From Jimgerdemannia flammicorona (Eukaryota), in the NCBI GenBank assembly GCA_003990765.1, contig RBNJ01000220.1:1-36408 (forward strand): a stretch of DNA of 36,408 nucleotides, read 5' to 3'. The notes under the pieces were generated by a model that saw only the letters and a list, made by a program, of their open reading frames with translations, was not told where the DNA came from and ran no database searches. This document shows, piece after piece, positions 76-33,679 of the stretch. The translations under genes were made by a program, and so were the position numbers. The first letter of the stretch is position 1, and every line of letters starts with the position of its first letter.

Positions 76-929
76 CATCGCCGCAAATATCCTCGGTGCC
101 GGGTAAGCTCTTGCTAGCTACACTTTGTCCCTGTCGGTTTTCACTTGCTGGTACCATAGCGCGCTCAACCAACATCTGTAACCGTTCATCAGGTACTGTG
201 TCGGCTTCGACATCGACCCCGAGGCGATCGAAATCGCGCGCCAGAACTGTGAGGATTTTGAGATCGACATGGATTTCGTGTTGACGGACTTGGGTGCCGA
301 GGAATCTAACTTTGATATGTTCCCCGAGAGGTTGGATACCATCGTGATGAATCCGCCGTTCGGGACCAAAAATAAGGGAATCGATATGGTGTTTCTGAAG
401 AAGGCTATCAACGTGAGCCATTCTGTGGAGTGCGATTTTATATTGGAGGGGGGAGGGGCTTTGTGTGTTGTGATAACAGACAATTTTTTTTTTTTTTTTT
501 TTTTTTTTAGCTCGCAGAGACCGCCGTATACTCTCTACATAAGACGTCAACACGAGAAGTACGTTATTCGACAAGATTCCAACCCCTTTTTTTGTGAAGT
601 ATTACATGGTAGTTTACTAAGCACTCGTCGATAAGATACTCCACACTTACCATCATGCCCCGAAACAGCATATTTTAAAGAAGGCCAAAGAATGGGGTGT
701 TGTGTGCGAGGTAGTCGCCGAAATGAAGGTTGGTAATATTTTAAGCTCGAATAGCGTCATATCTTACGACGATTCGGTTTGATCTTACATCAACGACTCC
801 ATCTCTCACCGTCGAATCCCACCCTTCTCGCAGTTCGACGTGCCCATGATGTACAAGTTTCACCAGAAGAAATCGGTCGACATTGCGGTCGATTTTTTAC
901 GGTTCGAGAAGGTAAAGCAGGGGCGGTAG
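76..929 (+). CDS. METTL5: METTL5-like N6-adenine rRNA methyltransferase; 5' part lies outside the window; exons approx. 76-102, 193-412, 511-558, 669-728, 834-929
   Basis: Spliced translation IAANILGAG-YCVGFDIDPEAIEIARQN...[86 protein letters not shown]; carries the NPPF catalytic motif and the YSLHKTSTR and YKFH motifs typical of METTL5; canonical GT-AG introns. Confidence 0.92.
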
Positions 930-2815: not shown

Positions 2816-3599
2816 CTAAAACCTTGTGGCGAGCTTGGTGATTTCCTTCCAAAGCACCTGGTAACTGGGAACGAGAACAAGCCAAGGGTGAATATTTGTG
2901 GATCCTCCCCAAAAGGCCAAAATAAAATAAAATAAATAATAAAATCCGCAAAAGGTCGAGAGAAATACTTACTCCTCGTCGCTCCGGACCTCATCCTCCA
3001 CGAACCCAAACCTCAGACACACCTCACCCGACACATTCTGCTTCTCGGATCGTTTGTTTAGCCCGAACCACACATCCTGGTTCTGCGGGTCGTCGTAGTG
3101 TCGAGCCTGCCCGCCCATCGCCTCGCCACCGTTCCGCATGAACAGGTTGCCAATCGGAATGTTGATCTCGCCCAGGTAGTCCCGCCCATATGTGTCCTTG
3201 TCCCATACTGTCAGGTGGATGAAGCGCGGGCACCGGCTCGCGTTGAGCTTCAGGTCGATGGTATAGTTCCACTCGGGATTCAACGTCTGGTAGATAACGG
3301 GGGTTGTGTATTTCTTGTCGCTGGAGGTGAGGTGGCGATTGGGTATGAGAATGGATTGGTAGAGCTTGTGGAGCATTCGTAGTAACAGTGGAGGGATGAA
3401 TGCTTACTTGACTCGCATCACAGCGTACGGGTCCGAAAAACCGGTCTTGTCTCTATGATGCAGAGCGTTGGGAAGGTCAGCTCTATGTTTTATTTTGCCA
3501 TTTACTGATCGTGCTTCGCTTGTCCGAGCTGCAAAATACTTACGCAATTGCGAGATCCTTTGCCCTGATCACACCGATGCGGAAATGTACAGTTGGCAT
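2816..3599 (-). CDS. Stand-alone C2-domain protein (~165 aa), resembling the C2A domain of phosphatidylserine decarboxylase Psd2; four exons
   Basis: Spliced MPTVHFRIGVIRAKDLAIADKTGFSDPYAVMRVNDKKYTTPVIYQTLNPEWNYT...LTVWDKDTYGRDYLGEINIP...WFGLNKRSEKQNVSGEVCLRF; typical C2 motifs SDPY, TLNPEW, WDKD, DYLG. The TAA at 2969-2971 lies within a GTAAGT donor, so a last exon (DYQVLWKEITKLATRF*, ending 2816) is likely. Confidence 0.85.
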
Positions 3600-8028: not shown

Positions 8029-9577
8029 CGGGGGCGGTGGATTGCGGCGAGAAAGGGAGCAGTGGTGACTGTTCATCGTTCGGTCACGTGTGGATCACGT
8101 GCGGCATATCGGTGAAAATATTTTTTATGCGCTTATTACTAATGGCGTGTTCGTCAAGTGACGTGACAGGCTGTGCCCCTTTCGCTTGGTCCGATTTGGC
8201 TACATTGAATTTTATTAACAAGTCTTATAAATGATGAACCTAGGGGTCGATGAGTGCCCCGAGCAATTGTTTGAGCTGCCGCACTATTGAATAATGCGGT
8301 TTCGGTTTCGTTGGAGCCATGAACTTTACGAACTTATGCTATTTGAGATGAATTTTTTCAAAAAGGTACCAATCCAGATGTACTTTTTAACAAACTTCGC
8401 CTCATTTGATGGACGCCGAGCGACTAGGCTGTGAAAGTGAAAGGACGGATGCTTACATTACTTAATGATGACGTCATATACATACTCTTACCTACACAAA
8501 TTCCCAGGAACCTTCCTTTAGTAGCCGCCCCGAACCAAGAAAACATGGACGAGAACACCAATCTTGTTGACAACAAAGGGGAGCATGGGCTACACCAGTG
8601 TTACCCAAATTTCCTTGAGTCATCCCCACCATCATTGTTGTCAACCGCCCTTTATTAGTATCATGATGGGACACAACTATTTTGGGCCCTGCAATCAGGG
8701 AAGGGATGACCGAACCGTTTAGAACCATTTGCTAAATTTATGTTTGCAGGTCAAGTAAAACGGGAAAAAAAAAAAAAAAAAAAAATGCATACGGCAAGTA
8801 CAAACACCGACCACCATATTTAGGGACAAAGTGCCATTCGTGGTTATCAAAATACCTTATGTTTTTTTTTTAAAAAAGGTCAAGTCCGTCGCCCCCCTTC
8901 CCCAACGGAAATAGCCCGTAAAAATAGCGCCCAATTAATCTTTGTCCGGATTGGCGGATCGGAGGATCCTAGAATGGAATGTATACGTGTTTGTGCGTGT
9001 TTATGCTGGATGAGTCCGTATCGCCGGGCAGAGTGAAACTGGATCCCAAGGTCCAAGACCAAGCATGAATGGGAGAGTGCGGGTGGGAGGGTGAAAGGCG
9101 GGTTGGGTGGGATTGCCCGATTTTGACGAGATGAACCCTGGGTTTCAGCTGATTGTAGCGCGTGGAGGTCGGGTCGGAGGGTCGGAGGTCGGAGGGTCGG
9201 TGGCACATGGGCCATTTCTGAAAACGCAATATAAATTCGCTGGGCTTGGATCGGTGGGCCCTTGCCTGATCTTTGAAAGGGAGTTCCTGGAAGCTCTCCT
9301 TCATCCATAGACCCGACAAAAGACCTTTCCGAAACCTTGTGGACTCGCACATACCGAATACAGAACTATTCCTCGCGTTGGACTCTAGAGCCGAAAAACC
9401 GACAAACGCTATTCGTTCCCTCCACCTGAACTGACAGCAGAGAACAATATTTACCCTAGTTTTACCCTAGTTTTACCCCCCCCTGAGTGCACTCTTGGCC
9501 TCCAGTGAAACTCGTACCCAAGAACAGTACATAAACAATATTTCTATTACTACTAGACCCCTCACACTACACTAACA

Positions 9578-11805
9578 ATGAAATTCACCCACACTTCCGC
9601 CCTATGGGCTCTCATTGCTAGCGCGCTTGTCGTTAATAACGTCAATGCACAAGGTATTTCCAGCGGCGACACCAGCACCCCGACTCTCGTGCCGATCGTG
9701 AGCGTCACTCCGACGCCCGCGCCGATTGATAGCGGCACTCCGACGCCCGCGCCGATTGATAGCGGCACTCCGACGCCCGCGCCTATTGATAGCGTCACTT
9801 CCGTCATCCCTACTTCGGCCTTGCCCCCGTCCCCAACCACAACGGCATCTGTTCCGGACATTTCCAACGTCCCGGGTCTCCCTCCCAATGCCACCCTCAA
9901 TCAGGTTCAGCAGCGCGCGCTCCAGTCGTCCTGTAACACACTCCAGCAGCTATGGACCCAGATGAATGGGTCAAGCTGGCTCGTCTACAATGGTTGGGAT
10001 TCCACTAATGCGAATAGCACGATGAGCTGCTGCTCTTGGGTAAAAGTCACTTGCAATATCGTCGGCGTCGTGACGCATCTGTGAGTATGGTTTCTCAGCA
10101 TAATTGTTACATATTTCGCGTGTCTCCAATTCTCTGTCGTTCTCAATTGCGACGGATCACATTATTCGCATTTTTCTCAACATCTCGCTTTCTCACGCGC
10201 TGATCCACAGGGATCTGGCAGGTAACAACCTCCAGGGCAACATTTCCTCGATCCTCAGCCAACTCCCTGGCCTCATCCGTCTGTACGTTCTCCAACACCT
10301 GCACATCTTGTCTCTGTCTGTACTGCATCTGTCCATTCAAAAGAAACAAAAAAAAACCCCCCTCCGGCTTCTTTTGTGCCCGCATATAGTCATCAATTTT
10401 CCATTATCCGATATCGACATGCATTGTCAATGGATTGCATGATTACCCCTGCACAATATCCTCTTTCGGAATGTCCTTTCTAATCAATTCCAACCCTTTT
10501 TCATCATTGTTCGACTTCCCAACCAATAGTGACATGAGCCAGAACAACCTTGCGGGCACCATCCCTGACAATCTGGCCGGCCTGATCAATCTACAGGTTA
10601 TGTAAGTAGCGTGGGCGGATTGACTGAAAGTATAATCTGCACGAAGGAAATCTGAACAATTAACGCGCTCGTATTCCACCCACCCCCTTACTATTTACAG
10701 CAACTTTGAGTACAACAATCTCAGCGGGCCCTTGCCGGGCTCTCTCGGTGCGCTTCCGTCCCTGCAGAAGCTGTATGTAATAGACAGTGAAGAACTCTTC
10801 GCGCTCCGCCTTCTTTGAAACCTTTTCGTCATTACGGCCTCCGTGTTTTGTTTCTTGCAAAAACGTATAACATGATTTCCCTTGCCAGTCATCTCCGCAA
10901 CAACTCGTTCACTGGTCCCATCCCCGATACGTGGGCGAGCATGGCCACCCTATCTGGCTTGTAAGTTTTGAGCTGCACTTAGAATTTCGATCTGCGTCTG
11001 CCGAAATATTGCGGTCCTTGATACGAACACATCCATTACCCTTCCAATCATTCCCCTTCAGATTCCTGAGCAACAACAAACTTACGGGCCCAATACCTGC
11101 CTTCCTGACCAAGCTGACTTTTTTGACCAGCATGTGAGCTCCCTGCTTGTATTTCCTCACCTCGCTTCGCCTCCGAAATGATCTATTGAGGCGCCAAGAG
11201 AAACTGGGCTGTTTGGCTGATTACCTCTCGATATTCTAGTGCTCTTGATGGCAATGCGTTCACCGGAATGATCCCATCCGACCTCGGCAATCTCGTTCAG
11301 CTGCAGACCATGTAAGTGTCATAGGCATGGCGTCGATCGCCAGGATGTGGATGAAGGACGCAAAACGTTGGTTGTCTAGTTACGTTTGTTTCACGTCAAC
11401 TCATCGATTGCTGATCCTGTCCCATGTTGTTTCGTTTCGATAGTAACTTGAAGGGCAACCAGCTCTCGGGTCCCATCCCGGACTCCATTGGCAATTGCGT
11501 GAGCTTGAACGTTATGTAAGTGGCGTGTTTGAGGACTGGGGCCTATGGGTAGAGGAGTCCTTCTCATCGTTATGTTGGTGTCCATGCCCAAAGTCATGTG
11601 TTGAAGCAAATTCTATTTTTGCGAAATGGTATTAACCACGTGGTGGTTCCTCTTTCCTTTTCCCGTCAAACGCAGAAACTTCTCCGGCAATAGTAAAATC
11701 AATGGCAGCATCCCAACCACAATGGGCAACATCCCTGGGTTGCAGTGGCTGTATGTAGCATCTTGATCGCATGCATCCTTTATCGCATGTGAAGCCATTT
11801 GACAT

Positions 11806-11844
<39 letters not shown>

Positions 11845-14078
11845 AAAAGAGAGAAGCCTCATTGTACTCTATCTTATCTTATTTTATTACTTATTCTAAT
11901 GCTTCTCTCCTTACTGTTCATTTTATATACTTTATCTCTATGCTTATTTCAATATACTATTCATTTTATTTCATTCTAACATACTTTCATTTCAATGTGC
12001 AGCCTTGCCTCATTACTTATTCTAGTATCTTGTCTTGCTATACTGCTTATTCCAATATTGTACTCACTACAACAGCCTTGATCTGATATTTTGAAAGATT
12101 TGTTTTTTTTTTGAAGAGAGAGGAGCCTCATTGCTCTATCTCATCTCATCTTACTACTCATTACAATGCTTCTTGCCATTCATTCTACATATTTCATTCT
12201 AACATACTGTTCATTTTATTCCAATATACTGTCTTGCCTCACTACTTATTCCAACACCTTGTCTTATTACACTGCTTATCCTTGCTATACTTTTCAATGT
12301 GTCCTACTATACATAATAGTCTTGGAAAGGTTCATTTTTTTTTAGAAGAGAAGGGAGTCTCATTGTTCTATCTTATCTTGTCTTATCACTTATTCTAATA
12401 TACTATTCATTTTATTCCAACACACTGTTAATTTCATTCTAACATACCATCTTGCCTTGCCACTTATTCCAGTACCTCATCTTACCACATTATACTGCCC
12501 TTGCTACACTTTTCAATGTGCCCTACTATAACAACCTTACTCTGACATTCAAAAGATTTATTTTTTTTTGAAGAGAGAGGAGCCTTATTGCTCTACCTTG
12601 CCTTATCTTATTGCTTATTTCAATACTTCTCCTTACTATTCATTCCATGTACTTCATCTTATCACTTATTCCACCTTATCATTCATTTCATTCTAATGTA
12701 CCATCTTGTCTTACTACTCATTTCAATACAATCCCAGCTTTAGCCTATAAGTGTGCCTACTTTATCTCCTCTACCCTATTCACCTCTACATCTGTCATCT
12801 CTGGACCCACTACTTCCACACCCACCATCTCTGTATCTTCCACATGAGGAGAGGCTCTGACAAACATATTGTCTCTTGAAATAACAAAAAAGAAATAAAA
12901 GAAATTGAAATTCATTTCTATCAATTATTAAGTTGAAAGTGGATTCTATAATTGCAGGTCAAGATATCAGAAATAGTGTATAAATAGTCTTGATAAATAA
13001 TATATATATCATACTACCTTTTCAAAATATCTCATCATAATGGAAGTGAGGTTTTTTTAAGCAACTTTGGTTTAAACAATATCATATATAATGGAAAGAT
13101 AATTAAAAAGAATAAATCATATAAAGTTTTTGATAGTGACAAATTTAGAATTCCAAATCTTTTTTTTTATAAAATCAATCTGAAAAATAATGTAAATTTA
13201 AAAGAGTGGGGCAGTTTGGAAATTATAAAGGAATAAAATATATAAAAAGATTGATACTGAATATCATTCTACCACTGGAGTATAGCTGTATTAAATAACA
13301 TTCAAGTAGTACATGTACTGGAAATTGAACTGCCACTATACTCTAGCTGTATTATTCGATTATCTGTACTAATAACTGTACCACAATTAGTGCTCCTAAC
13401 GAGCATCCGAATCAACTTGGATGGGATTCGAATCAACTATTGTTTTGATTTCCAAATTAGATAATTAAATATTTACATCAATAACTCAATGAATAATCAT
13501 CCAAATTTGATGATCTTAGTGTCATTTGAAAGCCCTTAATAAGGCCTATCTAATGATACCAAGAACATTGAAATCCGATCACGCATTGCCGAGTTATGAA
13601 GGAAACCGTCTGAATCGCCGATTTTGGAAATTCTTCGATTTGCCGATTTTGGAAATTTCGTCAAATAGAACGTTTTCCTTAATATCTCGGCAACACGTAA
13701 TCTGATTTTAATGTTCTTCATATTATTAGAAAGGCCTTATTAAGGGCTTTCAAATGACACTAAGATCATCAAATTTGGATTATTATTTATCGAGTTATTG
13801 ATGTAAACATTTAATTGTCCAATTTGGAAATCAAAACAATGGTTGATTTGAATCCATCCGGATGAGATTCGAATCCAATCCGAGTTGATCCAGATGGGAT
13901 TCGAATCCATCCAAATCCCATCTGGATTGACTCGTTGGAGCACTAACCACAATATCAATATAAGAAATTAGTTGTAATAGTATTATAAATAGTGTGCTGT
14001 CTATATCTAGGGAATTTTTAAAAAGAAAGATTGTTCTTCTTGATCAGTAGATTTCCAAGTATCTTGAATGTATTGTAT

Positions 14079-14113
<35 letters not shown>

Positions 14114-14735
14114 CTTGAATGCTCGCTGACGAATACTCTCTCTTCTCTTTGCTCTGCAGCGACCTGTCTTCTAACGCATTATCTGGCGAGATCCCGGCGC
14201 AGATTGGTAATCTTGCCAATCTGCAAAGGTTGTAAGTGAACATTTCCAGATTATCTGTTGATCCGTACTTCCCTGCAAATACTACACCTTTATCGTCCCT
14301 TGCTTTTATATCGTGTGCACCTGAATAACGCAACCACCTTTTTCTCTTTTTTTTCTTCACCATCCGCCGTTCGCTCCGACCGCCGAACCTAGCATTATCG
14401 ACACCAATAATATCAAGGGACCCCTCCCTTCCCAAATTGCCCTTCTTAACCAACTCCAATACCTCATCATCAGCCACAACAACCTCGACGGTGGCTTCCC
14501 GGCCATTGCCGCGCCCCCGCTCCTCGGTTTCTGCCGTGCCACACCAAATACCTTCCAGACATGTCCGCCCACGGACGTCATGGCCAACCCTTCCTCCCTT
14601 GCTTTCGCTTGCTCCTTCGACTGCACCGGATCGGGAAAGAAATCTACCACGAGCGCGGCCCCAGGGGGATACGCAAACGCCACGCCCGCCGTCATAATCG
14701 CGACAGCCCTCGTGCTGCTTATGTCATGGGCTTGA
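9578..14735 (+). CDS. Secreted, probably GPI-anchored plant-type LRR protein (~498 aa); exons 9578-10080, 10211-10282, 10530-10601, 10701-10772, 10889-10960, 11062-11133, 11240-11311, 11444-11515, 11676-11750, 14160-14231, 14393-14735
   Basis: Signal peptide MKFTHTSALWALIASALVVNNVNA; Thr/Pro-rich stalk; LRR N-cap (GW...CCSWVKVTC); repeats LxLxxNxLxGxIPxxLGxLxxL; Cys-containing C-cap; hydrophobic terminus AVIIATALVLLMSWA*. All introns are GT-AG, phase 2, and the frame is intact throughout. Confidence 0.9.
9700..9800 (+). repeat. 30-bp coding tandem repeat (TPTPAPIDSG x3) in the LRR protein stalk
   Basis: Three near-identical copies of ACTCCGACGCCCGCGCCGATTGATAGCGGC. Confidence 0.9.
11810..12850 (-). 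repeat. Four degenerate tandem units (~225-270 bp), each poly(A)-terminated on the minus strand; probable non-LTR retroelement 3' ends inside LRR intron 9
   Basis: Poly-T followed by GAA(G)AGAGAGGAGCCTCATTGCTCTATC-like sequence at ~11843, 12113, 12345 and 12570; CpG essentially absent. Confidence 0.65.
13388..13945. mobile_element. hAT-type MITE (558 bp) with long inverted arms and an 8-bp target-site duplication
   Basis: Ends TAGTGCTCC...GGAGCACTA; TSD ACCACAAT at 13380-13387 and 13946-13953; inverted arms ~13420-13547 versus ~13732-13858. Confidence 0.9.
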
Positions 14736-15941: not shown

Positions 15942-16399
15942 GTCTTCGCATCGGCCAAACGTCCTTTAACTCTTCCTCCGGAGATGGGCAAATCAGCGAT
16001 TCTCTTTGCCAACCAGAGAAATAGGATTACGGCTCGGAGACGTCATCGATACCAACATATCCGATCTCCGGCTCATTTCACAACGTAATCCTGGCGACAA
16101 CTGTCTTCTTGCCGCGCAAGAGAGCGTTAAGGAGTGAGTACTTTTGTGCCGTGTTTGCCTCTCGTGCAGCATGCCTTACAAAGTATGAAAGCATAGCTTT
16201 TACTCATACCAGTGGGATCTTTTGACATCTACATCATGAAAAAAAATTTGAACATCTCACCTGACAATCTGCATCTGGGACATTTCACTCTGCATCTGCA
16301 TAAAGAACATCTCTCACTTATATCTATGATATCTAAGTCATCTAGTATTAACATAAATTCAGAATTAAGAATATTGTTGAAAATCAATTTTGTATAAAA

Positions 16400-18180
16400 A
16401 AAAATATATCTTTGATATAATTATTCAAATCAAATTAAGGGTCAATTCAATTCAAAGTCCAATTTAAACCTGATTTTTCAAAATTCAATAACTTAACCAA
16501 AATATATCTAAATTTAATAAATTTTAGCTTGTTCAATGTGCCTTATGATAGAGAATCTAGTACAATAAAGAATATTAAATTTGGACATATTTCCATTGAG
16601 TTATTATATTAAATCAAATTGAACTTTAATTTGATTTGATCAAATTGAATCAGGCCTCAATTCAATTCAAAAAAACCCCAATTTAATTCAATTTCAATAA
16701 CTCTCAATTTATTTAAAAGCACTAGTTGGATTTCTTATCTATCAAGTTTTTCATAATCTTTTATAAGAGCTTGTCTTTGACTAATTTTAGTACTTTTTAT
16801 CTTATTATATTTATACTAATAGTTATAGAGAAAAACTAAACAGTGCTATCTCTAAATAACTATATCTATTATATATATTGTCAAATAAACTAAATAAGCT
16901 ATAATATGATCTCTTTCTAAAAGTAATTAAAAATTAGATATAAAAATAATAAATATAAAATTAATATCTTTTAATTTTAAAAATTATAAATATTAACTTT
17001 AATACTCAAATTAAATTAAATTAAATTAAATTTAACTCTAATTCAATTCAAATTTAAATTTTTAAAATTTAAATTTTAGTTTATTAGATTTATCTAAGTA
17101 AATTTAACATAATAAAAATTATATATTTTGATTGAGTTATTGTATTTTAAAGTTTAACTCTTAATTTAAATTTACTCTAATTTAATTTATTTAAAAGTAC
17201 TAGTAAACTTTATAAAAAGTATAGATTTGTTATTGTGTATTAGATTTATCTATATCTAAATAAATTTAGTATAATAAGAATTATTAAATTTGAATATTTT
17301 TTATTAAGTTATTATATTTTAAATTTCAACTCACAATTTTAAATTAAATTAGACTTAAATTTAATTTAATTAATTCAAATTGATTTAATTTATTTAAAAA
17401 TACTACTCTATAATTAAGCTATAATAGAAATATTTTAGTAAAGTTTAAGATTAGATTTTTTTTTTTTTTTTTTTAATTAATATTATTTATAATATTAGTA
17501 AAAATAAAGTAAAAGTGAGATAAAGATATAATTGTTAAAAATATTACTTTATTATTTCAACTTACTTTATTACTTAAAGCTTAAGATATATAAATATGTA
17601 TTTTTAAAGAATTGTTTAATAAATATAAAATAAGAATAAAAATATATAATTAAAAAAAATATATATAACTAATATTATAGAGATAATTATATATTACTAT
17701 ATATGTAAATATTTTATCTTTATATATTAATAATAAAGTAAAATTTAAACTATTTAGATATTTGATAAACAAAAAGAAGAATTATTAAAAATAATAATAT
17801 AAAGTATAAAAATATATATCTATATTATATAAAAAAGATTATTATATAAGAGACTACTATATAAGAAAAATTATATAATAAAAACCTATATATGTATATA
17901 TACTTATTAATCATTAATTGTTAAAAGATATTATTTATCAATATTAGTCAGAAATCTTTAAATAATAAATACATTTCATTATCTATTATTTTTATATTAT
18001 AAAATCAATACAGACTGAAAAGATCTATAAACAATTTAGAGAATGATCCTTTAGACCTCAGAAATGATATTACTCTCTTTAAACATCATCAATTATAAAA
18101 ACATTATTTATATACTTTATATATATATATTGATAGAAATAAAACTGAGCAGAGCTGATATAGAATGCAATGTTCTTCTA
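16400..18180. mobile_element. Very AT-rich cluster of decayed MITE/DNA-transposon fragments related to the 13388-13945 element
   Basis: Right-end variants AAAGCACTA (~16717), AAAGTACTA (~17194), AAAATACTA (~17397); shared AAATTTGGA...GAGTTATT internal motif at ~16578 and ~17287; AATTCA subterminal repeats. Confidence 0.6.
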
Positions 18181-19154: not shown

Positions 19155-19954
19155 ATGTCCTTCTCTTTCGGTAAATATTTATAATTCAAATGTTCTCTTC
19201 AACACAAGCCAAGTCCACGGACGAGTCGCGCAAGGCACAGGCCGTGGCCAACCCGGGAGAGCAGACGAGCAATAAACGTTCAAACACACAGAGAGATAAT
19301 GTTGACGATTCCGATTCGTCATCTTTTAAACGTCTCGTCACAGGCACCCCCGCCGCTCAAACCACCACCTTCGGTAGGTCCACCATCCGCCCTTTCTTCT
19401 TGCCGTGTAAAACTCATCTCGTCGGGGCCGCCACTGGGGCTGCCCAACCTAACCGCCTCACCCACAAAACCGCGCCTTGATCCGTCCGATCATGCCCTTC
19501 TGCGATTTAGGCCTTGGCGTGACCCAAACTCCCCAACAGACCCCCTCCTTCAATCTCAACGCCACCGGCCAGCCCTCTACCTCGACGCCCGCCCTCTTCG
19601 GCGGCGGCGGCGGCGGCTCGTCATTCTCCTTCGGCGGCAGCGCCACCACACCGGCCACGTCCCAGCCCGCGGCATCCGTCGCCCCGACCTCGACCTTTGG
19701 TGGCTTCGGCTTCGGAACGGCCACGGGCCTGTTCGGCCAGACCCAACAGTCCTCGCAGCCCGCACCCACACAGTCTCTGTTCACTACCCCAGCCCCAGCG
19801 ACCACGAGCATAGGCCTGTTCGGGTCAAGCACGTCCGCTCTTGGTGGTGGGACCGGGTTGTTTGGCGCAAAGACGACCGCGGCTCCATCGAGTTTTAGCT
19901 TTAATACCCAGCCGGGCGGGTTATTTGGGGGGTCGGGGACGACGGGTTTGTTTG

Positions 19955-20020
<66 letters not shown>

Positions 20021-21658
20021 AACAGCAGCAACAACAGCAACAACAGCAACAGCAGCAACAGCAGCAACAGCAGCAACAGCAACAACAGCAGCAGCAATAC
20101 CTCTTCAGTATGTAGTCATGGGATTTGGGGTGTGTTCGGGTTATTGCATATTGAAGCGGCGGAGGAACGATTGAGGACTAATTGCTAGTAGAATGTGGCT
20201 TCTTTTGTACAAATGTTATGGTTGATATGTTTGATATCCATTAAGCGCAATTCCTTCTTTCAACGCAGACGCACAAGCGCAACAGCAGCAACAGCAACAG
20301 CAAGCACCCAACCCCTGGGACAGCTTCATGTTGATCAAGGCATATTGGGACCCGAAGTCACCACATTGCCAGTTCAAGGTATTTGCTTCTCTATCTCCAT
20401 GAACGCTATTCGAGGTGCTTTAACGTGGTTCGGGTTCAAAGATATGTTTTGCGTATGATGCTATGTATTAAGCAGGAATAAATGAAACTAATATGGTCAT
20501 CTCGGCCCACGAAACAGCACTACTTCTACAACATGGTACATCCAAACGACGCCCATAACTACGGGCGCCCCGCGGACCAGGACGAGACGTTATGGAACCA
20601 GGCGATGAGGGATAACCCGGACCTCAGCTGGTGGGTGCCCTTCATACTGTTGTGGTGCAGTGGATAGAGGATGAGTTGTTTATTGAGATTCATCCGACTC
20701 ACAAGCTTGGCATCGGTTTTCCATCTTTCGTGGGCGCAATAGCATGGTGCCCGCCCTAGCGGTTGGTTTCGAAGACATCAAGAAGCGCACCGAAATGCAA
20801 GAGCAGACAAGCATGGCCCACCGGGCTAAGCTGGCGGTTTGTATATTCCCATTGCTCTTTGTTTTCCATCTTCCCGTTATACATTTTCACTCCTGATGGG
20901 TTATAAGGGATTGTATTTTGATGCTGACGATGGTCAAATATGATACTCGACGCACAGGAAATCGCGGACAAGATCCAAGCACTCCAACAGCAACATGACC
21001 TTAAAACGAGTGTCAGACTGGAAGAGTACAAGAATCGGCATTCGATGATGGCACATCGAGTCTTGCAGGTATAAGAGATTCTCTGGAGGCGATTGTGCTT
21101 TCGCAGGTGTTGACTTGGCATGTTTTGGGGTGGATGTTGAGAGCTCTGTTCTTTCCCAACAAAACCAGCTCATGTCCAAAGTCGAGCTCCTCCGCAACAA
21201 AGGTTTCTCGATCCGGCCCGAAGAAGAGCAACTGCGGGCGCGCCTCGAGACGCTGCAGCAGCACCTGCGAAAACCGAACCAGTTCCGCGGCAAGGTGAAT
21301 GAGCTCTGGGCGCAGCTGCAGACGATCCATGAGGCGAAGCAAGTCTACGGCGGTAGAGGAAGCGGACCCGAGACATGGGAGGTCGTGGACGACTCCCAGC
21401 TCGCGGTGATTGCTAAGGTGGGTGTTGGAGATTGGTCTCGTAGGAGTCGGCCCTTGGATTCGATGAGGTGGTGGGCTCGGTTAATTTGGTTTTATTATAT
21501 TTTGTTTAACGCATGCCCATCTATTTTGGCCATGATCCCTCTCCCAGGTTTTCGCGGAACAGCAAGCCGGGCTGCAGCATGTGACGAACGTGTTGCAGAA
21601 TTATGAGACCGACTTGAAGATCATCGATACGGGGTTGGCAGAGGCGCCGAGGTCGTGA
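19155..21658 (+). CDS. NUP57: Central-channel FG/GLFG nucleoporin Nup57/Nup54, multi-exon with two 5' micro-exons
   Basis: MSFSFG start; FG/GLFG repeats; polyQ; then WDPKSPHCQFK-HYFYNMV...LWNQAMRDNPD...MVPALAVGFEDIKKR...LRNKGFSIRPEEEQLRARLE...RGKVNELWAQL...FAEQQAGLQHVTNVL, matching the Nup54/57 alpha-helical domain. Confidence 0.92.
19957..20097 (+). repeat. CAG/CAA trinucleotide repeat encoding 47 consecutive Gln
   Basis: 141 nt of uninterrupted CAG/CAA codons in frame with the GLFG domain. Confidence 0.97.
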
Positions 21659-22092: not shown

Positions 22093-24169
22093 ATGTCCCT
22101 TCTGTCCACCCGCTCGCTCGTCATGCGCGCCTGCGCACCACGCCTCCTCGGCTCCTCCTTCTCCCGCGCCCCGCTTCGTCTCACCCATTCTCGCCCTTTC
22201 ACACGCTCTGCACTCGTCGCCAAAGACGTGGACGCCGATGGTAAGGACACCTTGCCCGGGAAGGCTGGAAACATCATCGAGTCCATGCTCTATGGGTCGA
22301 AGAAGATCAAGGAGGAGGAGGAACAGACGTACTCCAAGAAGCTGGCTAGGGGGAAGTACGTCCACGAGTTGCAGAGTGAGTGTTTATTTTGTTTATTTTT
22401 TATGGAGGGGGGAAAGAGGGGGGAGAGAGATTAACGTGTAGGAAGGAGGGTTGTGGATCTGCGAATGACGCGAGCAAATTATAGCGAGACTAGTTTCGAC
22501 TGTCTTGGGAAGGTTTGCTAGTAAGGATACGCGAAGTAGACAAGGCACGTTTGAGCTCCCACAGGCATGAGCCATGCGGAATTTGCGACTGCGCTTCGTG
22601 TGATCACGTCACGTAGATACCTAGGCTCCTAATGGGAAGCTGAATACTCCACAATGACTCATTCACCCATTCCCCATTCAACAGAGCACAAGGTGAAGCC
22701 GAAATACGTCGAGGACTATATCAAGCTTATGTAAGCGTCGTCCTAGAGAAAACTGTCGTACCTTCATGGTTCCATTGGAATGCTTTGTGGAATAGGGACT
22801 TCGTGTTGGCTTGCTTACTCCAGAACACCGATCAATTGGGCTCGGAAACATTATCGCCACGTACTTTGATTGACCAATATAAAAATCATTTATTTATCTA
22901 GTTCCGTCCATTACCCCCGCATCGCCAGCGATCCTGAGAACCAGGTCAACCTGTGCGGTAGCTGGCAGACTGAGATCGGCGATCAGGATTCCTTTAGTGA
23001 GTATTCAGGGTATTGTTAAATACTTGGTTTATTACGGCCGCAAGCTGAGATCCGGTATGATGAAAGGAGAGTGAGTGGGTCATTGATGGACTAAATGCGT
23101 GTTTCACGGTTAACTCTTCTTTGCTTCGTGAATCTAGTTCACGTCTGGGAGTACAGAGGATACCCAGGCCACAAGCAGACGATGACTAGGCTTCGTGAGG
23201 ATGAGGTGAGGATGAAGGGTGGTCAGGAGGCGCTGTTGAAATCCCGTCTCCCAAAAAAAAAAAAAACCTCCCTCTCAAAGACAACAATCCTCCCGTGTTG
23301 CGGAACCACAGCATTACCAAAATTTCATCCGCGAGCTACTCCCGATGCTTGTCTCGCGCGAGAACCAGATGTGCCTCGAGTTCTCGTTCTGGGCCACCTC
23401 GCCGCCGCGGGTCACCAATGGCATCTACGAATTGAGGAGCTACTTGTTGAAGGTAAGGTCGAATTCTAAAGAGGTGGGAAATGGGGTGATTGGTGGACGA
23501 ATTGTTATTGCTTGTATGATGAGGGACTTACCCAGATGGTTATTCGCTTTACAGCCCGGAAATCTTCTTGAGTGGGAGCTTAATTGGTATATCTTCCGTT
23601 TTACTTATGTATGGGGTGGAAAATACACATACAGACACGAACACATTATTGATGTAAATTTCTTACACGTATTGTTGCCGCAGGCGCAAAGGACTCGAGT
23701 GCCGTAGCCAGTTCTGCGAGCCTGTTGGCGCGTGGTTCTCGCAGCTAGGCCCGCTCAACTTCGTTCACCATATGTGGAATTACCCGTGAGTAGGGTTTAT
23801 TGTCAAGGGTGACCCGCTCTTTGTCATTCGAGTATTTCGCTCTGGTGGATTTCATCTGTATGGTGATTGATTGTTTCTGTTCGTCAATTGCAGTGACCTC
23901 CAAGTGCGAAAGGAAACCCGTGAGCAAGCTTGGCAGGTCAATGGATGGGCGGAGACCGTGTACAACACTGGTACGATCCTTGTTACATGGATTTAAAGTG
24001 TCTTGGTGAATGGGCGCGCGGATGCTGTCGTTATACACGCATGGCGGCAACCTTGCATGAGTAGATATCTGATTCGCGCCTTCTATTTTGGTTCCTCTCT
24101 TCAGTCCGCCTGATCAACACCATGAACACGGCGATCCTTTCCCCGTTGCCGTTTAGCCCGCTCAAATAA
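22093..24169 (+). CDS. NIPSNAP: NIPSNAP family protein with a likely mitochondrial presequence, about nine exons
   Basis: Arg/Ser/Leu-rich N-terminus; YSKKLARGKYVHELQKHKVKP; LCGSWQTEIGDQD; HVWEYRGY; IYELRSYLLKPGNLLEWELNWRKGLECR; VGAWFSQLGPLNFVHHMWNYPDLQVRKETREQAWQVNGWAETVYNT; ILSPLPFSPLK*. Confidence 0.95.
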
Positions 24170-24670
24170 CACGCAATCAACTCAAGTCGAATGTCGAGTT
24201 GAATAGTCATTGTTGATATAGTGCACGGGAGGCATAGTTGATACAAACATTTACTCAAGGCGTTTGTTGAGGCTCAGTGTGCATGATAATCTTCTTTCAC
24301 TTCTCTCTTCCTTTCCCCTTTCGTATGCGTAAAGATTCAATGGAACCAATGAACTCTTTCTCCTTCTAGACCATGATCTTCTCCCTATCCTATTCTTCTT
24401 ATATTGTCCAAATCGCGCTTGAACCCCTCTTTGTTTTCACGAACTTTTGGAGAGAGTATTTATGCGACAATACATTGGCACAACTTGCCTCGATGTCAGG
24501 GAGAAGATAGGAAATGTAAATCGTGTGTTGGTGTTGAATAATAGTTATTGGTGTTGAATATTGCCAATGTCACAAAATTTCAGATAGGTCAGGTCGGATG
24601 GCTTGAGTAGGACATTGATAAACAATGTTGGTCATTGCTAGTCATTACTGCCAAATAAATCAATGCCAAC

Positions 24671-25216
24671 TGGTGCTCTCTAAGGGACAGCTCCACTCAG
24701 CAAAGCCTGAAGGAAATTCTTCAAGTGCATACATTATGGACTTGAATATAAAAATCATTATAGTCTAATATATTGTATCACTTATCTCCTCTATTAATGC
24801 TTCTCTTTATTGATATCATCTCAGTTTAAAATATAGAAAATAATAATAATAATAATAATAATAGTTATTGATATAAGATATGTATCTATATAAAACTTTT
24901 TAATAAAGATTATAACTATATCAATAAAGAGTCTTTTAAAGCTTTGAAATACATAATTAAATAATAATTGGTCTCTATTACTATATATATATAATTGTCC
25001 TTGAGACTCTTATAATAGATATATTACTAGGTATATTGCTAAATATATTATATACTAGATATATTATTAGATATATTATTGAGTATATTCCTCAATTTAA
25101 TTTAAATTTGATTTGATTTAAACTTGATTCAAATTGAAAAATCCCCAATTCAATTTGATTCAAATGACCCTCAATTTGATTTGATTCAAATTGATTCAAT
25201 TTATTTGGGAGCACTA
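24671..25216. mobile_element. Degenerate hAT-type non-autonomous element (~546 bp)
   Basis: Left TGGTGCTCTC, right GGGAGCACTA with GATTCAAATT subterminal repeats; flanking 8-mers ATGCCAAC and GTACTAGT differ only by transitions. Confidence 0.5.
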
Positions 25217-25224
25217 GTACTAGT

Positions 25225-27600
25225 TTGGAAAAATATAATCAAAACAAACTTTGCTACAAAATTGGAATCCAAATGAGAAGGATTTTATCTTGTATACAAT
25301 ATCAGAGAAACTAGTATCTATTTAAGAAGTATAGATAGATGAACTCTGAGGATACCAGTATATATCAACTGCCTCAAGATATATCTCTTCTCCTACTATG
25401 AATTAGACAATTGACCAGTATCTCTAGACTCTTATCCTTAGTTCATTCCAATCCCTCCCAGTTCCCCTACCACAATTTTACCAAGTCAATGGAAATCTCC
25501 TCCAATGAATCCAGACTCACCAAGAGAACCTTATCTTAGCCAGATATTTACTATAAGCCTACCAGCTATAGGCCTACTATATAATTGGAGAATAGTTGTA
25601 GAACCTTCTAACCCCAGACCTAACTATATTAGAAACTCCACTGACCTAACTTAGAAGAACACTATTACTGCAGACAGACTGTATATAATCTACAAATAAA
25701 AAACTATAGCTCTGATACAGATATAATTCTTTCTGAGTAATATATAAGAAATGAATTCCACTATCTATCTGAGTATTATCAACTATATCAAAATTCTATT
25801 CTTAGAGAAAAAAGAAAAATCTGTTAAATAGAGTAACTCTGATCCAAATGAAGATAATGGTTCAGATATTGATGCTGAAGATACTTATACATATTGGAAT
25901 GATGACTAAAAGATAGTCCAAGGACAGACTATCTTTTAGTAAGAGCTGATGTGATAAGCAGTATAACCATACTACTGAAATTATAAATTAGCTATATACC
26001 ATATCTAGTATACTAGATAATTAAGACTGCTTTATTGCACCAATCTGTATAATTAACCAGAGATATCAGAAATAGTATATTTATCTATTCTGAACCAGTA
26101 TACTATGCTAACCCAGTATACTATACCAGTCTAGTACACTATATCAGTCTAGTATACTGTACTATCTAAGAATACTTATCATATATAACAATCTATTATT
26201 AGTCATATAGTAACTAGATAGCAACTACAACTATATAAAATACCCCAGAGACAAAAGTGAATAAACCTCAGTTTGAAAAGTCAAAGAAAAGCAGAAAACT
26301 TTCTTTTTCTACTTTAGTCTACTTTCTGATATAAAGATTAATTAGTATACTTACCAGACTAAGTCAGAAGAAAAAGAGTCTGAAAAGTTTAAAAGTAAAA
26401 GATAAGTCTATCTACTATACTTTGAGAGGAACTCTAAAGCTACTACTAAGAGATTGTGAGCTTACTTTCTCTACTCTGGTTTACTTTCCAATATAAAGCT
26501 TTGAAGAGAAGTCTACTATCTCAGTTTTTTGATACAACTTTGCAGTAGAGCCAGTCTATTCAATATTACTCTATATAAATAAAGCCTATCTCTGATACAA
26601 CTTTGCTAAGAGAAGAGAATCTGAGTTATTTTTCAGAGAAGTCTACTGATTCAGAAAAATTTTATATCATTCAAGTTATCCAAGTTATTATTTAAGAACC
26701 TTACTATTTCCAGAGAGTCTACTATAAGAAATCTTGCTACAAATTAGTCTTTTGATACAACTTTACAGTAGAGCCAGTTTATGTACAAATAAAGCCAGTC
26801 TTGACATAACTTGTCAAGAATCCATATCTGAGCTATTGAATTATCTACTATCTGAGTTATTTCTAAGAAATCTGCTAATTTAAGAAGAATTTATATCATT
26901 TACCATTTTTGAGTTATCTGAGTTATCAAGTTATCTATCATCTAAGTTATTCAAGTTATCTAAGTTATCTATCAATTGAGTTATCATCTAAGTATCAGTT
27001 ATATTTAGGAAGTCTGCTAATTCAGAAGAATCTGCACTCAAATTGAGTTATCTATTAGGTCTGTATAAGAAATACTACCAAGATTATCTCACTAGAAATT
27101 ACATATTTTTGGAGATCATTATACTATATAGAGATCACTATCACTTAAGAAAAAAAAACTGCTAAATTGTCAGACTCTCATATATACTACACTATATATA
27201 TAAATCACTACTTATACTCAAGAACTCATCCTAATAAGAAAATCAACTATTGTATTCAGATTGACTATTATATTACTAAACATCAATAAGAAATCTTAAA
27301 ATATTTTATTACTTTTGACAAAGTAACTAGGAGCTCAAGCCAAACTACATCAATCCCTAATCTTGTAATTTGTCTCTATTAAGTCAGATATATTATAATA
27401 AATATATTCAGTATATCATATTTAACCATAGTCTTAAATCTATATAAATATTCTTTATACTAACCTTAGCTCTACTTTTCCCTCTTAAAAATAAAGAAGT
27501 ATTTTTATCAAGAACTCTTAGATCTAACTTATTAATAATTCTAAATCTAATTAACTTAAAATATAAGTATATAGTACTTTGAATAAGTTGATTCAAATTA
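25225..27600. mobile_element. Heavily mutated AT-rich repeat relics, possibly LTR-retrotransposon derived
   Basis: No CpG, TpA-rich, no long ORF; internal duplications (GATACAACTTT at ~26531, 26594, 26754; GAGTTATC arrays at 26900-27050). Confidence 0.4.
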
Positions 27601-27654
27601 AATCCAGATTCAATTTATCATATAATAGTTTGATCCAAATCTCAAATCTGAAAT

Positions 27655-27825
27655 AATCTGAACCAACTCAGATTAATCTGAATTACTCAATCTGAATTAC
27701 TCAATCTGAATTCTTCAATCTGAATTTTTTAATCTGAATTCCTTAATCTGAATTAATTAATCTGAATCCTTCAATCTAAATTCTTCAATCTAAATTCTTC
27801 AATCTGAATTCTTCAATCTGAATTC
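27655..27825. repeat. 14-bp tandem repeat AATCTGAATTCTTC, about 11 copies
   Basis: Directly visible. Confidence 0.85.
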
Positions 27826-27882
27826 ACTATATAACTTATATACTAGATATATCTATATAAATATATATATAAATATATATAT

Positions 27883-30625
27883 TGTAACAGTGATCTCAGA
27901 ATGATGACATTAGCACAGGAGATAGCCTTTTCTTGCAAGCTACCAGATCAGAGCATAAGAAGATCATATAGCATATGAGATGAGCAATAATGACCAACTA
28001 TCATGCCTCCTTTCTTTGCTACCTTACTGGTCATAAGGTTTGGTAGGTGACCTTCCAAGTCCCCCTTCCCCTAATATTACCCCCTCTACCTCAGGTTGGT
28101 TTGTTATGCCTGCAGGGATATGGTGGGAGGAGGGTAATGGTGATGAGTTGCCCCTTTTATCAGTATTGGATTGGTGCTTCCTCCACTTTTTTGCAGATTC
28201 TAATGCCTTCAGCTGTGTCTGGGGTATACCCATTTTGGTGCGGTGCCTTCTTCCTTTTACTATCACTAACATGGAGTTGTCTCGGTGTGTCTCAGGCTAC
28301 ATAGGGAGTTGGCCAACCTTGGGCATCAAGTGCTCAGTGTAGATTACCTACAGATCTTCAGTGCCTGTGGTGGGGCCCTCTAGTTTTGGCAAGCTTCCCG
28401 GCAAGCATGGTTCTGGTGTAGGTGACTGTTTTTTGGGTGTTGTCAGGATGGGAGGGGAGATGGCCATCACAGATAGGAGGAAGGATAATAATGGTGAACC
28501 AGTAGGGTGCCAGACTGGGGGTGGTTATTGGGGCTGGGGCAGGTACTGCTTCGGTGGAGCCTTTTGATTGGTGCAGCACAGTTAGGTAGTAGGTGTCACT
28601 CTTGGCTTCTTTTGGCAGTTAGCGGGATTGGGCCCCAGTTGTCAGGGGGGGTCAGGGGGCCCAAGGCTACCCATTTCAGGCATCTTGGCTGCACTCAACT
28701 GGAACCAGGAGCTGATACAGCAACATGATTGAGGCCCACAGGCTTGAGTAGTGGGGTATTGGAGGCTTCCTCTCACCTCATGTGTAAGTCCTTTACTCAC
28801 CTTGACTGGAAGAACCAGGCCCTACCCACTATATTGTACTTTGATGAGGGTTTTTCTTTATCTGTCATTCTCTTTGGAGTGGCAGGGGCTATTCTATTCA
28901 GCTCGAGCATAGCCTTGTATATACATTGGGTTCTCAGGCATGCACTTTTAGTTGTTGGCATATGGTTGGATTTCCCCTGGTGGTAGAGAGAGCATGGTGT
29001 ACAGAATGAGGTGCAGGCCAATATAGGCCCTGCTGTGCCTGACATAGTCGAGCTGCTAGACAATAGCTAGTCTAAGTTAATGGGGGGACAGTGCTTGGTG
29101 GGTGGTGGGGGAGGGTTTTGGACTATATAGTCTAGGTTCCCTTTCAATAAAATTCCGTGGGACATGAGTCTATTAAAAAAAAAAAAAAAAAAAAATAATG
29201 ACCAACTATGAGTTATTGTGACCACAGTACAAGCATCTTGAGAAATATAAAAGAAGGATCAAGGAACCATAGTAGCAGCAATCAACAAGACCCACTAATC
29301 CCAAAATAGCTCAAAGACTCACTACAAATGAAATGCCTGCTGCTTACCAAACCTCAAGGTCAAGGAACTACTAAGGTATCTCAGTCAAAGAGAGGATGTT
29401 CCAAGACATCAGAAGAGTCATGAGGACCCACTCAAGAAGGACTCCTAGTGTCAACCTGGATACTGGTGACCCTAATTACTATATCCTCTACTGCTATGAA
29501 ATAGAAATAAGGATCACCATTACTACTAAATGCCTCCAAATGTGGCAGGAGTATGAAATAGGAAATCTCCTCTGCTGAGAGTTCCCACTCAAGAGCTACA
29601 AGATACTACTTCCATGGATATATATGAAATAAGAATAGCTAAGAAGATCCATCAGATCTTCAGGCATATACTATGGTTGATCTCTAACTTGGAATATGTT
29701 AGAGTCTCAGATTTCAGAGATCTGTCATTCTGCCATATCAATGCACTAGAAGGCAGGGTGGCTACAGAAGCCCAGTCTACTATTACCCTCAATAGTGATA
29801 AAGTAGAAGACTTCTGGCATCCTATCCTTCAGGACAACCCAGACCAATTCCTGCAAGGATTGATCTCAGTATTTCAAGGCCCAAGTATCCAGGTTAGATC
29901 TCTCCAAGACCCCACATTTGTTTCCTATTTTGTAGAAAAGAACCTCATAGACTAGAGAGCTCCAGATCTCTTTCCCACCACTGAATGTGATGACATCATC
30001 AGCAATGACATCATCCTACACAACATATGCGAGATGCATGATGAAGCATACAAAGTACATGAAATATGCAATGATGATGAATTTGTGGACCTTATCTCCT
30101 TTGAAGACATCCTGACCTCTGATGATGAAGCCTCTATAGTCCTGAACATTCTGCTCTAAGTCTCTTGGTTATACTGAATAATACCAATACCAGCATTCTG
30201 ATGTAATACTGAATAATATCAGCACCAGCATTCTAATGTAATACTGAATTATACCAGCATTCTGAACCTATACAACTATCAGTACTGACTCTGGAACTTA
30301 GCAGTTTTTCCTGTCCTGGCATTTTATTTTAGTTATTGGAATTTATATTTAGCTTTATATCTTAACAACTATTGAATTATATTTTATATAAATACCTCTC
30401 TTATTTTCTCTGAAATAAAGTCAGTCAACTCAGTGCAATATATACACTTCCTTATAAGTAATCTAAGAGATAATAAGATAGTTAAAGATAAGAAGTTTGA
30501 GGACTATAAGATCTTGAGAAGGCACTCCAATAAGAACTTACTTATAACAAACTTGAGTTAGTCTAAGAGATACACCTTGAAGAGAATCTAGTATATTTGA
30601 AGGACTCAGCAACTACTATGTAACA
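27883..30625 (+). mobile_element. Probable solo LTR (~1.5 kb once the nested insertion is removed)
   Basis: Begins TGTAACA and ends TGTAACA (TG...CA); ATAT on both flanks within a TA tract; AATAAA at ~30414-30419; internal short tandem repeats at 30170-30265. Confidence 0.6.
28002..29195 (+). mobile_element. Poly(A)-tailed retroposed insertion (~1.2 kb) with a 16-bp TSD
   Basis: AATAATGACCAACTAT at 27986-28001 and 29194-29209; AATAAA at 29146 followed by A21 at 29175-29195; GC content markedly higher than its flanks. Confidence 0.88.
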
Positions 30626-33600: not shown

Positions 33601-33679
33601 ATAGAGATAGTAAAATAGATTGCAGATCTGATAGCTGTTATGTAAAGAGTATAAAGAGTTGTAGAGATAGGGGTGGAGG

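Follow-up and report, generated by a model that had tools for sequence, protein, structure and literature searches.

A conserved plant-type leucine-rich repeat protein encoded by one-repeat exons in the Endogonales fungus Jimgerdemannia flammicorona

The DNA analysed here is a 36,408-nt stretch of the Jimgerdemannia flammicorona contig RBNJ01000220.1 (hereafter the window), and it carries on its forward strand a gene for a leucine-rich repeat (LRR) protein at positions 9578–14735. A neighbouring open reading frame (ORF) encodes a fungal METTL5 that is 100% identical to a J. flammicorona protein, which places the window in the Endogonales (Mucoromycotina) and bears out an earlier note that had assigned the sequence to an early-diverging fungus; a Nup54 ORF is also present, for which an Atlas search gave no hit of use for taxonomy. 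Contamination with plant DNA was considered and rejected, given that the contig carries the fungal METTL5 and that the closest full-length relatives of the LRR protein are fungal. A protein-family scan of 61 of the 84 window ORFs of at least 90 aa revealed no kinase family, and a bacterial promoter and terminator scan 5′ of the gene, which is irrelevant to a eukaryote, returned nothing.

The gene model was assembled from a search for candidate exons flanked by AG and GT with an open phase-2 frame, and it comprises 11 exons and 10 introns with a coding sequence of 1497 nt, the product being 498 aa (plus stop). All ten introns run from GT to AG and all ten lie in phase 2, a run for which we calculate a chance probability of roughly 2e-5 at about 1 in 3 for each intron, an assumption that follows the control figure of 34% given in the available text of PMC6564038. 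Between the first and last exons lie nine others, of which eight measure 72 nt and one 75 nt, and each encodes one LRR of 24 or 25 residues; the model and RNA contigs thus agree with what the earlier note had described, namely the start and end of the gene, the exon sizes with one LRR each and the phase 2/2 splits within the same codon. Eleven LRR units were listed in the 498-aa protein, arranged as tandem 24-residue repeats that fit LxxLxLxxNxLxGxIPxxLxxLxx, and the ten occurrences of the core motif N.[LIVMFA].G.[LIVMF][PS] in the window all fall within the gene (0–5 occurrences in shuffles).

Exon 1 (9578–10080, 503 nt) is covered by RNA contigs, and inspection of its translation shows a signal-peptide-like start (9578–9649, the first 24 aa), a Thr/Pro-rich low-complexity stretch, a Cys-containing N-terminal cap and the first part of LRR 1. 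A 30-nt tandem repeat in this exon (9675–9799, forward strand, 4.2 copies, 88% matches) encodes units of the TPTPAPIDSG type, and in root metatranscriptome contigs it shows in-frame indels (minus 3, 3 and 12 nt in X3; plus 12 nt in X4). The 72-nt LRR exons that follow on the same strand are exons 2 (10211–10282), 3 (10530–10601), 4 (10701–10772), 5 (10889–10960), 6 (11062–11133), 7 (11240–11311) and 8 (11444–11515), and these are followed by the 75-nt exon 9 (11676–11750), which encodes the single 25-residue unit. Intron 9 (11751–14159, 2409 nt, GC 0.31) is filled with repeats: runs of T34 (11810–11843) and T31 (14081–14111) bracket an AT-rich repeat insertion, which includes about four degenerate tandem copies of ~250 bp (11830–12730) alongside an inverted repeat with 205-nt arms (13405–13609 and 13670–13874). 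Beyond it lie exon 10 (14160–14231, 72 nt, one LRR) and exon 11 (14393–14735, 343 nt), the latter encoding a further two LRRs, a C-terminal cap with four Cys, a linker rich in Ser, Thr, Ala and Gly and, at the very end of the protein, a 14-residue hydrophobic tail (14691–14732) that by inspection resembles a GPI signal.

Contigs from four RNA runs (X1–X4) were compared with positions 9400–11800, a span that holds the joints of introns 1–8, with those of introns 9 and 10 lying outside it. All eight testable joints were recovered base-exact in X1 and X2, including the two that flank exon 2 (10080>10211 and 10282>10530), and two of the eight were also found in each of X3 and X4. Exons 3–9 of the model are represented in the RNA contigs, exon 6 also in X3 and exon 8 also in X3 and X4. 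The contigs read exon 9 straight into exon 10 across the 2.4-kb intron, which is thus spliced out in RNA: the loose end behind 11750 in X1 and X2 corresponds to the first 30 bases of exon 10. Intron 10 is placed by its canonical sites, the open frame and a gap-free alignment to relatives over the junction rather than by a direct RNA joint. Intron 2 is retained in one low-depth contig (depth 73 versus 2770). Minor joints with 2–3 extra letters (10769/10770>10889) were rejected as alternative splicing and read as error or variant contigs, their depth being at most 23.7 versus 1912.9 in X1 (about 1% or less). Spliced transcript pieces were found in two root metatranscriptomes. We take the LRR gene to be an ordinary gene of an Endogonales fungus, and one that is actively transcribed.

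Relatives were sought with the last exon, which gave 10586 matches; the best 150 were considered and 10 of these 150 were looked up. Among the best 150, four proteins match the C-terminal cap as well, and these derive from Phycomyces blakesleeanus (P0179), Backusella circina, Linnemannia exigua and a Logan/JGI cluster. P0179 and the window protein form one colinear alignment (163/412 identical, 40%; E 5e-95), whilst the Backusella (81/179 identical) and Linnemannia relatives are partial. The cap and hydrophobic tail of exon 11 are common to P0179 and the P0207 cluster, and the tail ends all three proteins. LRR units of the same rank in the window and Phycomyces proteins are 45% identical (n=10), against 31% for units of different rank (n=100), and the same-rank Phycomyces unit is the best match for just five of the ten comparable units. 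A counterpart of exon 7 is missing from P0179; because the predicted structure of this protein has pLDDT < 50 at residues 268–276, the gap is read as a probable gene-model error, although it could be true repeat-number variation. The window gene is therefore a member of a conserved Mucoromycota family with colinear relatives, and within this family intron number differs whilst intron position is kept: contiguous ORFs span the exon 10/exon 11 junction in the related sequences P0190, P0207 and P0208, and in P0209 a junk translation runs up to an R directly before the DLSNN unit. Further searches yielded little: exon 1 had no match to longer proteins at E<=0.001, its cap region gave 185 pattern matches in metagenome contigs with none confirmed, and the best 120 of 1001 matches in a word-indexed protein search with P0179 comprised itself, mostly plant LRR proteins and some metagenome proteins, with no added fungal relative. 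A metagenome scan with the C-terminal alignment gave six loci, five of which (L001–L005) were rejected as generic contiguous LRR ORFs. The sixth, L006, resembles Mortierellaceae, sharing 69% identity with P0162 across 51 aa, and has four donors at phase 2 in a Leu codon, with exons of one, two and three LRRs; it counts as weak evidence because it contains in-frame stops and one acceptor lacks a placement. Searches of the open-access literature yielded no description of a fungal gene with one LRR per exon, nor of this Mucoromycota LRR family.

The earlier note had seen in the symmetric exons a set of cassettes that could be skipped, duplicated or swapped to generate diverse recognition receptors, in the manner suggested for the ROCO genes of brown algae. 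The layout permits this, since the frame is kept in all 55 forward donor-to-acceptor joins, with L, I or F as the junction codon, and the frame-neutral modularity that the note described is thus formally real. In brown algae (PMC11378527) and in Tetrahymena (PMC6564038), layouts of this kind have been tied to the shuffling of exons and to alternative splicing, at least in the available text of both papers, and the repeat insertion in intron 9 shows that the locus tolerates rearrangement. However, no exon-skipping joint was seen in the contigs of the four runs, which is weak evidence of absence given that contigs drop rare variants, and the 36-kb window holds no LRR exon outside the gene. The nine LRR exons are mutually as unlike as shuffled sequence (mean pairwise nucleotide identity 0.53, range 0.43–0.63, versus 0.49 with a maximum of 0.60 for shuffles), which indicates that they are old, and their order and content are colinear with the Phycomyces protein, that is, with a protein of the Mucorales. 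Concave-face x positions, compared between the window and Phycomyces proteins as a crude proxy for selection, are no less conserved than other x positions (17/40 versus 25/100 identical; Fisher p=0.065, not significant and from a single protein pair). It is therefore very unlikely that the exons serve as cassettes for a diversifying receptor family, and the results come close to the ordinary structural LRR gene that the earlier note itself had named as the contrary case. What stands of its interpretation is the fungal host, the appearance of a surface protein and the plant-like exon plan.

The fold was assessed on the relative P0179 rather than on the window protein. P0179 matches Pfam LRR_1 (3.7e-26) and LRR_8 (3.3e-20), whilst exon 11 of the window gene has a weak LRR_1 match (E 0.01) and the window exons, taken singly, are too short to clear the threshold (best E 0.01–0.05). 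An AlphaFold2 model of P0179 (pLDDT 81.8, pTM 0.72, residues 90–400 mostly > 90) ends in a short low-confidence linker (434–440) and a terminal helix (442–460). The best PDB match by phmmer is the FLS2 ectodomain (3e-117), and the top Foldseek matches are the plant LRR ectodomains of MIK2, ERL1/2, PEPR1, HSL1, GSO1 and FLS2 (E 1e-19 to 1e-15), so that, as modelled for this relative, the predicted fold is an LRR solenoid like those of solved plant ectodomains. The caps are less plant-like. P0179 has no match to the LRRNT_2 N-cap (PF08263) at E<=0.1, and neither a Pfam search with exon 1 nor a PDB search with the N-cap alone gave a match at E<=1; full-length alignments to BAK1, MIK2 and ERL chains nevertheless start inside their caps, a sub-threshold resemblance to the LRRNT_2 cap. 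None of the PDB alignments passes query residue 385, and thus none enters the C-cap. In our picture of the window protein, a Cys-containing N-cap and a four-Cys C-cap specific to the family flank a solenoid of about 11–12 LRRs of the plant 24-residue type.

ERECTA and SERK are plant LRR receptor kinases with intron-rich LRR regions. In rice, the available text of PMC3050792 describes a ‘group 5’ of LRR kinases in which 72-nt exons each encode one LRR and phase-2 introns split the first Leu of xxLxLxx, and the window gene shares this repeat length, exon size and Leu split, so that the plant-like layout claimed in the earlier note holds. Plant LRR kinases and receptor-like proteins also supply the best sequence and fold matches; however, the window protein is fungal and does not continue into a transmembrane helix and cytoplasmic kinase, its coding sequence stopping directly after the GPI-signal-like hydrophobic tail, and its family differs from the plant chains in an N-cap below the LRRNT_2 threshold and a four-Cys C-cap that aligned to none of them. 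The brown-algal LRR-ROCO genes likewise have tandem 72-bp LRR exons of uniform phase with one repeat each, but according to the sections available their products are cytosolic LRR-ROC-COR GTPases, their many shuffled exons are nearly identical, they give rise to several splice variants, and concave sites are under positive selection (PMC11378527); the window exons, in contrast, are diverged and conserved in order, no variant was seen, and the exon of the brown algae has a different starting point within the repeat. Tetrahymena LRR genes resemble the window gene in their equal-length exon arrays and extreme phase-2 bias, but, as far as the source text available goes, they have 90-bp exons and form thousands of young, species-specific, clonally expanded genes (PMC6564038), as against one conserved LRR gene in the window.

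These likenesses raise the question of a direct link with plants, in which the family would have been taken from the plant lineage, or would share an ancestral LRR exon unit with plants, and would function in this root symbiont where fungus and plant meet, perhaps as a receptor or decoy for peptide signals from the plant. The plant-type 24-residue repeat, the plant peptide-receptor ectodomains that make up all of the best PDB and Foldseek matches, and the intron position and phase shared with rice LRR kinases, the exon of brown algae having its start at another point of the repeat (on the parts of PMC3050792 and PMC11378527 available), would fit, as would the spliced transcripts in root metatranscriptomes. 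The nearest Atlas clusters are TOO MANY MOUTHS and Piriformospora-indica-insensitive-2-like plant proteins (score 0.90), which are similar in size (about 450–490 aa) and have an LRR-only ectodomain, TOO MANY MOUTHS chains also being among the PDB matches; their caps differ, however, and the likeness lies in language-model features with a low overlap (133 shared features), which makes it a lead only and not orthology. Against such a link, relatives occur in saprotrophic Mucorales and Mortierellomycotina, so the family is old and not symbiosis-specific; the N-cap falls short of LRRNT_2 and no PDB alignment enters the C-cap, and among the best 150 of the 10586 last-exon matches, high-ranking ENA and eukprot proteins also have plant-type LRRs. 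A plant-derived or plant-directed role is accordingly unlikely. The fuller version, in which a Mucoromycota counterpart of plant LRR receptor-like ectodomains, alike in repeat type and in the exact position and phase of its introns, would be a relic of gene exchange between early land plants and the first of their fungal partners or of a shared ancestral exon, and would sense or intercept plant peptide signals at the root interface of the mycorrhizal Endogonales, strikes us as decidedly speculative.

Instead, the gene probably encodes a conserved, secreted, plausibly GPI-anchored plant-type LRR protein of Mucoromycota with an inherited exon layout and no active variant-making system. The GPI-type features (signal-peptide-like N-terminus, small residues and terminal hydrophobic tail) were recognised by inspection and fit the cell-surface location proposed in the earlier note. 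The signal peptide would direct the protein to the ER, where the C-terminal hydrophobic signal may be exchanged for a GPI anchor, and the LRR arc would then be exposed on the plasma membrane or cell wall. With its concave face it would bind a putative partner conserved throughout the phylum, perhaps a protein or a peptide. The one-LRR-per-exon, all-phase-2 layout would be a structural legacy of the way in which such arrays were assembled, one that the window gene has retained and its relatives have lost in part. We also considered a protein without a part in signalling, either a secreted inhibitor or a structural component of the wall, comparable to PGIP or LRR-extensins: PGIP and LRX chains are among the PDB matches, LRX 6qxp_A having the top target-normalised TM-score (0.78), and by inspection the Thr/Pro-rich N-terminal stretch resembles a glycosylated wall-associated segment. 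This stretch is not conserved, however, being acidic and Ser-rich in Phycomyces, and the conserved hydrophobic tail favours membrane attachment over free secretion; the present results do not distinguish enzyme from peptide binding, and we regard a wall or inhibitor function as quite improbable.

The preferred reading, a GPI-anchored surface LRR protein, has a possible precedent. Extracellular LRR receptors have been reported to be almost absent from fungi (PMC2939053), and Soanes and Talbot (2010; PMC2939053), in the text available, found LRRs with one predicted membrane helix and no other domain in no more than a few fungi, two zygomycete species among them, exon structure not being treated in that text. 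Their description would suit the window family if the C-terminal tail was scored as a helix, and it is tempting to guess by analogy that their proteins belong to it. The gene described here is transcribed in a root symbiont of the Endogonales and encodes a plant-like, presumably surface-located LRR protein, one that has been conserved across the Mucoromycota. It offers no evidence for a fungal receptor-diversification system; with an exon plan that matches plant LRR kinases, it provides a testable case for the inheritance of LRR arrays and their introns, and, for a fungal lineage that has received little study, a candidate surface binding protein.

Nine LRR-encoding exons were found on the forward strand by scanning for AG-exon-GT candidates with an open phase-2 frame, and these are joined to a first exon, E1 (9578–10080, 503 nt), and a last exon, E11 (14393–14735, 343 nt), in a coding sequence of 1497 nt, or 498 codons plus a stop. 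Eight of the nine internal exons measure 72 nt, namely E2 (10211–10282), E3 (10530–10601), E4 (10701–10772), E5 (10889–10960), E6 (11062–11133), E7 (11240–11311), E8 (11444–11515) and E10 (14160–14231), and one, E9 (11676–11750), measures 75 nt, all on the plus strand. All ten introns are of the GT..AG type and in phase 2, each would introduce an in-frame stop if retained, and their lengths lie between 99 and 247 nt with the exception of intron 9 (2409 nt). The codon formed at the junction is L, I or F in each of the 55 possible forward donor-to-acceptor joins. Given these exon lengths, phases and joins, the earlier note's description of eight 72-nt and one 75-nt phase-2 LRR exons is exact, and the frame-neutral modularity that it pointed out is formally real.

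This layout now also has support from RNA. Part of the stretch was found in five runs, two from one organism and three root metatranscriptomes, and the contigs of four of them were aligned to positions 9400–11800. In runs X1 and X2 the joints of introns 1–8 (10080>10211 through 11515>11676) are as predicted, base for base, with two of these joints each seen in the root metatranscriptomes X3 and X4, and contig depth is zero in five intron-internal bins. Beyond 11750 the X1 and X2 contigs continue with 30 letters that match the start of E10, which shows that the 2.4-kb intron 9 has been spliced out. The predicted joint of intron 10 rests on canonical sites, on the frame staying open and on relatives aligning over the junction without a gap. 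No exon-skipping joint was found among the contigs of the four runs over 9400–11800, where contigs prove presence, not absence. Intron 2 is kept in a single X1 contig, whose depth is 73 versus 2770 for the spliced form (~2.6%); this contig covers 10253–10559, spanning the longest of the ordinary introns (247 nt), contains two single-base indels and derives from pre-mRNA or from trace DNA. At 9450–9478, some 100 nt before the start codon and still within RNA contig coverage, there are 2.6 copies of an 11-nt unit, TTTACCCTAGT.

Intron 9 (11751–14159) contains an AT-rich insertion (GC 0.31) that is flanked by poly-T runs (T34 and T31) and includes some four degenerate tandem copies, each of ~250 bp, plus an inverted repeat whose two arms of 205 nt show 86% complementarity. 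The poly-T runs excepted, no further copy was found in the window. The insertion may be a non-autonomous transposon; despite it, the intron is still spliced correctly in the RNA contigs. Elsewhere in the window, an RVT_1 reverse-transcriptase ORF (34431–35327, E 7e-19) and a weaker one (33829–34410) lie in a stretch of strongly positive GC skew (0.33–0.54 across 32000–36408) that is probably a retroelement. Very-low-GC blocks at 16000–18100, 24000–28000 and 30000–32000, with a minimum of 0.11 at 17001–18000, are flanked by gene-like stretches of GC 0.45–0.60. The lineage is Endogonales, Mucoromycotina: the aligned part of a METTL5-like methyltransferase ORF (182–634, plus strand) shows 100% identity to a protein of Jimgerdemannia flammicorona; identity to an Endogone protein is 77%, followed by matches in Mucorales and Mortierellomycotina. 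Neither this gene nor the neighbouring C2-domain protein (2969–3403, minus strand) or FG-repeat/Nup54-type nucleoporin (19185–21606, plus strand) hints at a functional connection with the LRR gene.

By inspection of the translation, the protein consists, from the N- to the C-terminus, of an initial segment resembling a signal peptide, a stretch rich in Thr and Pro that 4.2 copies of a 30-nt repeat encode, a Cys-containing cap (N-cap), eleven units of 24 or 25 residues with the plant-type LRR consensus, a four-Cys cap (C-cap), a small-residue linker and a terminal hydrophobic tail of 14 residues, the last two together resembling a GPI signal. Ten occurrences of the core LRR motif fall in the gene, and the rest of the 36-kb window has none. 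Root metatranscriptome contigs depart from the window mainly at 9739–9824, in the exon 1 Thr/Pro repeat, with in-frame deletions of 3, 3 and 12 nt and 8 substitutions in X3 and a 12-nt insertion in X4; in the LRR exons the same contigs show 0–1 differences. The exon 1 differences look like length polymorphism of a low-complexity N-terminal stretch between strains or close relatives.

Relatives were sought by searching 1.84 billion representative proteins with E11. The search returned 10586 matches, mostly long multi-LRR proteins, and among the best 150, for 10 of which names were looked up, four proteins also matched the C-cap. The C-cap matches are P0179 from Phycomyces blakesleeanus (461 aa, full length), P0138 from Backusella circina, P0162 from Linnemannia exigua and a Logan/JGI cluster (P0190 with P0207–P0209). 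One colinear alignment joins the window protein to P0179, with 163/412 positions identical (E 5e-95); with P0138, 81 of 179 positions are identical. In the public Phycomyces gene model a counterpart of E7 is missing and 11 unrelated residues stand in its place (residues 260–280); since AlphaFold2 pLDDT drops below 50 at 268–276, exactly where the counterpart is absent, a gene-model error in which a 72-nt exon was overlooked is suggested, a real difference also being possible. Across relatives, the position of introns appears to be kept while their number varies. Contiguous ORFs cross the E10/E11 junction in P0190, P0207 and P0208, and P0209 carries junk translation as far as an R immediately before the DLSNN unit, as would be read from an AG acceptor plus one base. 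L006 (1600–2700 of a metagenome contig), a Mortierellaceae-like homologue with 69% identity to the Linnemannia protein over 51 aa, has four phase-2 donors in the Leu codon, at the same repeat position as in the window gene, and exons with one, two or three LRRs apiece. In-frame stops make it weak evidence on intron position; it further has one ill-fitting acceptor and is either a pseudogene or a poor-quality contig.

The earlier note went further and suggested that this could be a modular, diversifiable recognition receptor family, a reading that the comparisons do not bear out. Mean pairwise nucleotide identity among the nine LRR exons is 0.53 (range 0.43–0.63) versus 0.49 in shuffled controls, giving no sign of recent exon duplication. 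When the window protein is compared with P0179, 67 of 100 framework positions are identical, as are 17/40 concave x positions versus 25/100 other x positions (Fisher p=0.065). Different units of the gene have only 16% of their concave residues in common. Same-rank units of the two proteins reach 45% identity, versus 31% for units of different rank, and the own-rank unit is the best match in only 5 of 10 cases. Read alongside the colinearity of the relatives, these identities favour purifying selection on a fixed array, on modest statistics from one protein pair.

Exon modularity is reportedly also a feature of human NLR. Rice LRR kinases have 72-nt exons, and their phase-2 introns interrupt the first Leu of xxLxLxx (PMC3050792); the intron position is identical in the window gene (e.g. 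T-H-L/D-L-A-G at E1/E2). Brown-algal ROCO genes have 72-bp LRR exons of uniform phase, with shuffling, splice variants and positive selection, and the exon begins elsewhere in the repeat than that of the window gene (PMC11378527). Tetrahymena has arrays of 90-bp phase-2 exons (PMC6564038). P0179 matches Pfam LRR_1, LRR_8 and LRR_4, and by sequence it is closest, among PDB chains, to ectodomains of plant receptors (FLS2, 3e-117, then GSO1, BRL2, MIK2 and ERL1/2), in agreement with Foldseek. No PDB alignment extends beyond its residue 385, and the C-cap is thus specific to the Mucoromycota LRR family; the N-cap falls below Pfam LRRNT_2 and matched no PDB chain by itself. Literature searches found no paper on a fungal one-LRR-per-exon layout or on this family. 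LRR receptors are nearly absent in fungi according to Soanes and Talbot (PMC2939053), with few exceptions including two zygomycetes, and the supplementary tables of that study may include the family. That the intron position is shared with plant LRR ectodomain genes through common descent or by transfer from plants, and that the protein would act at the root interface, is considered quite improbable. It is likely instead that the gene encodes a conserved surface LRR protein of the Mucoromycota, whose exon plan is inherited and does not serve as a working device for diversification.
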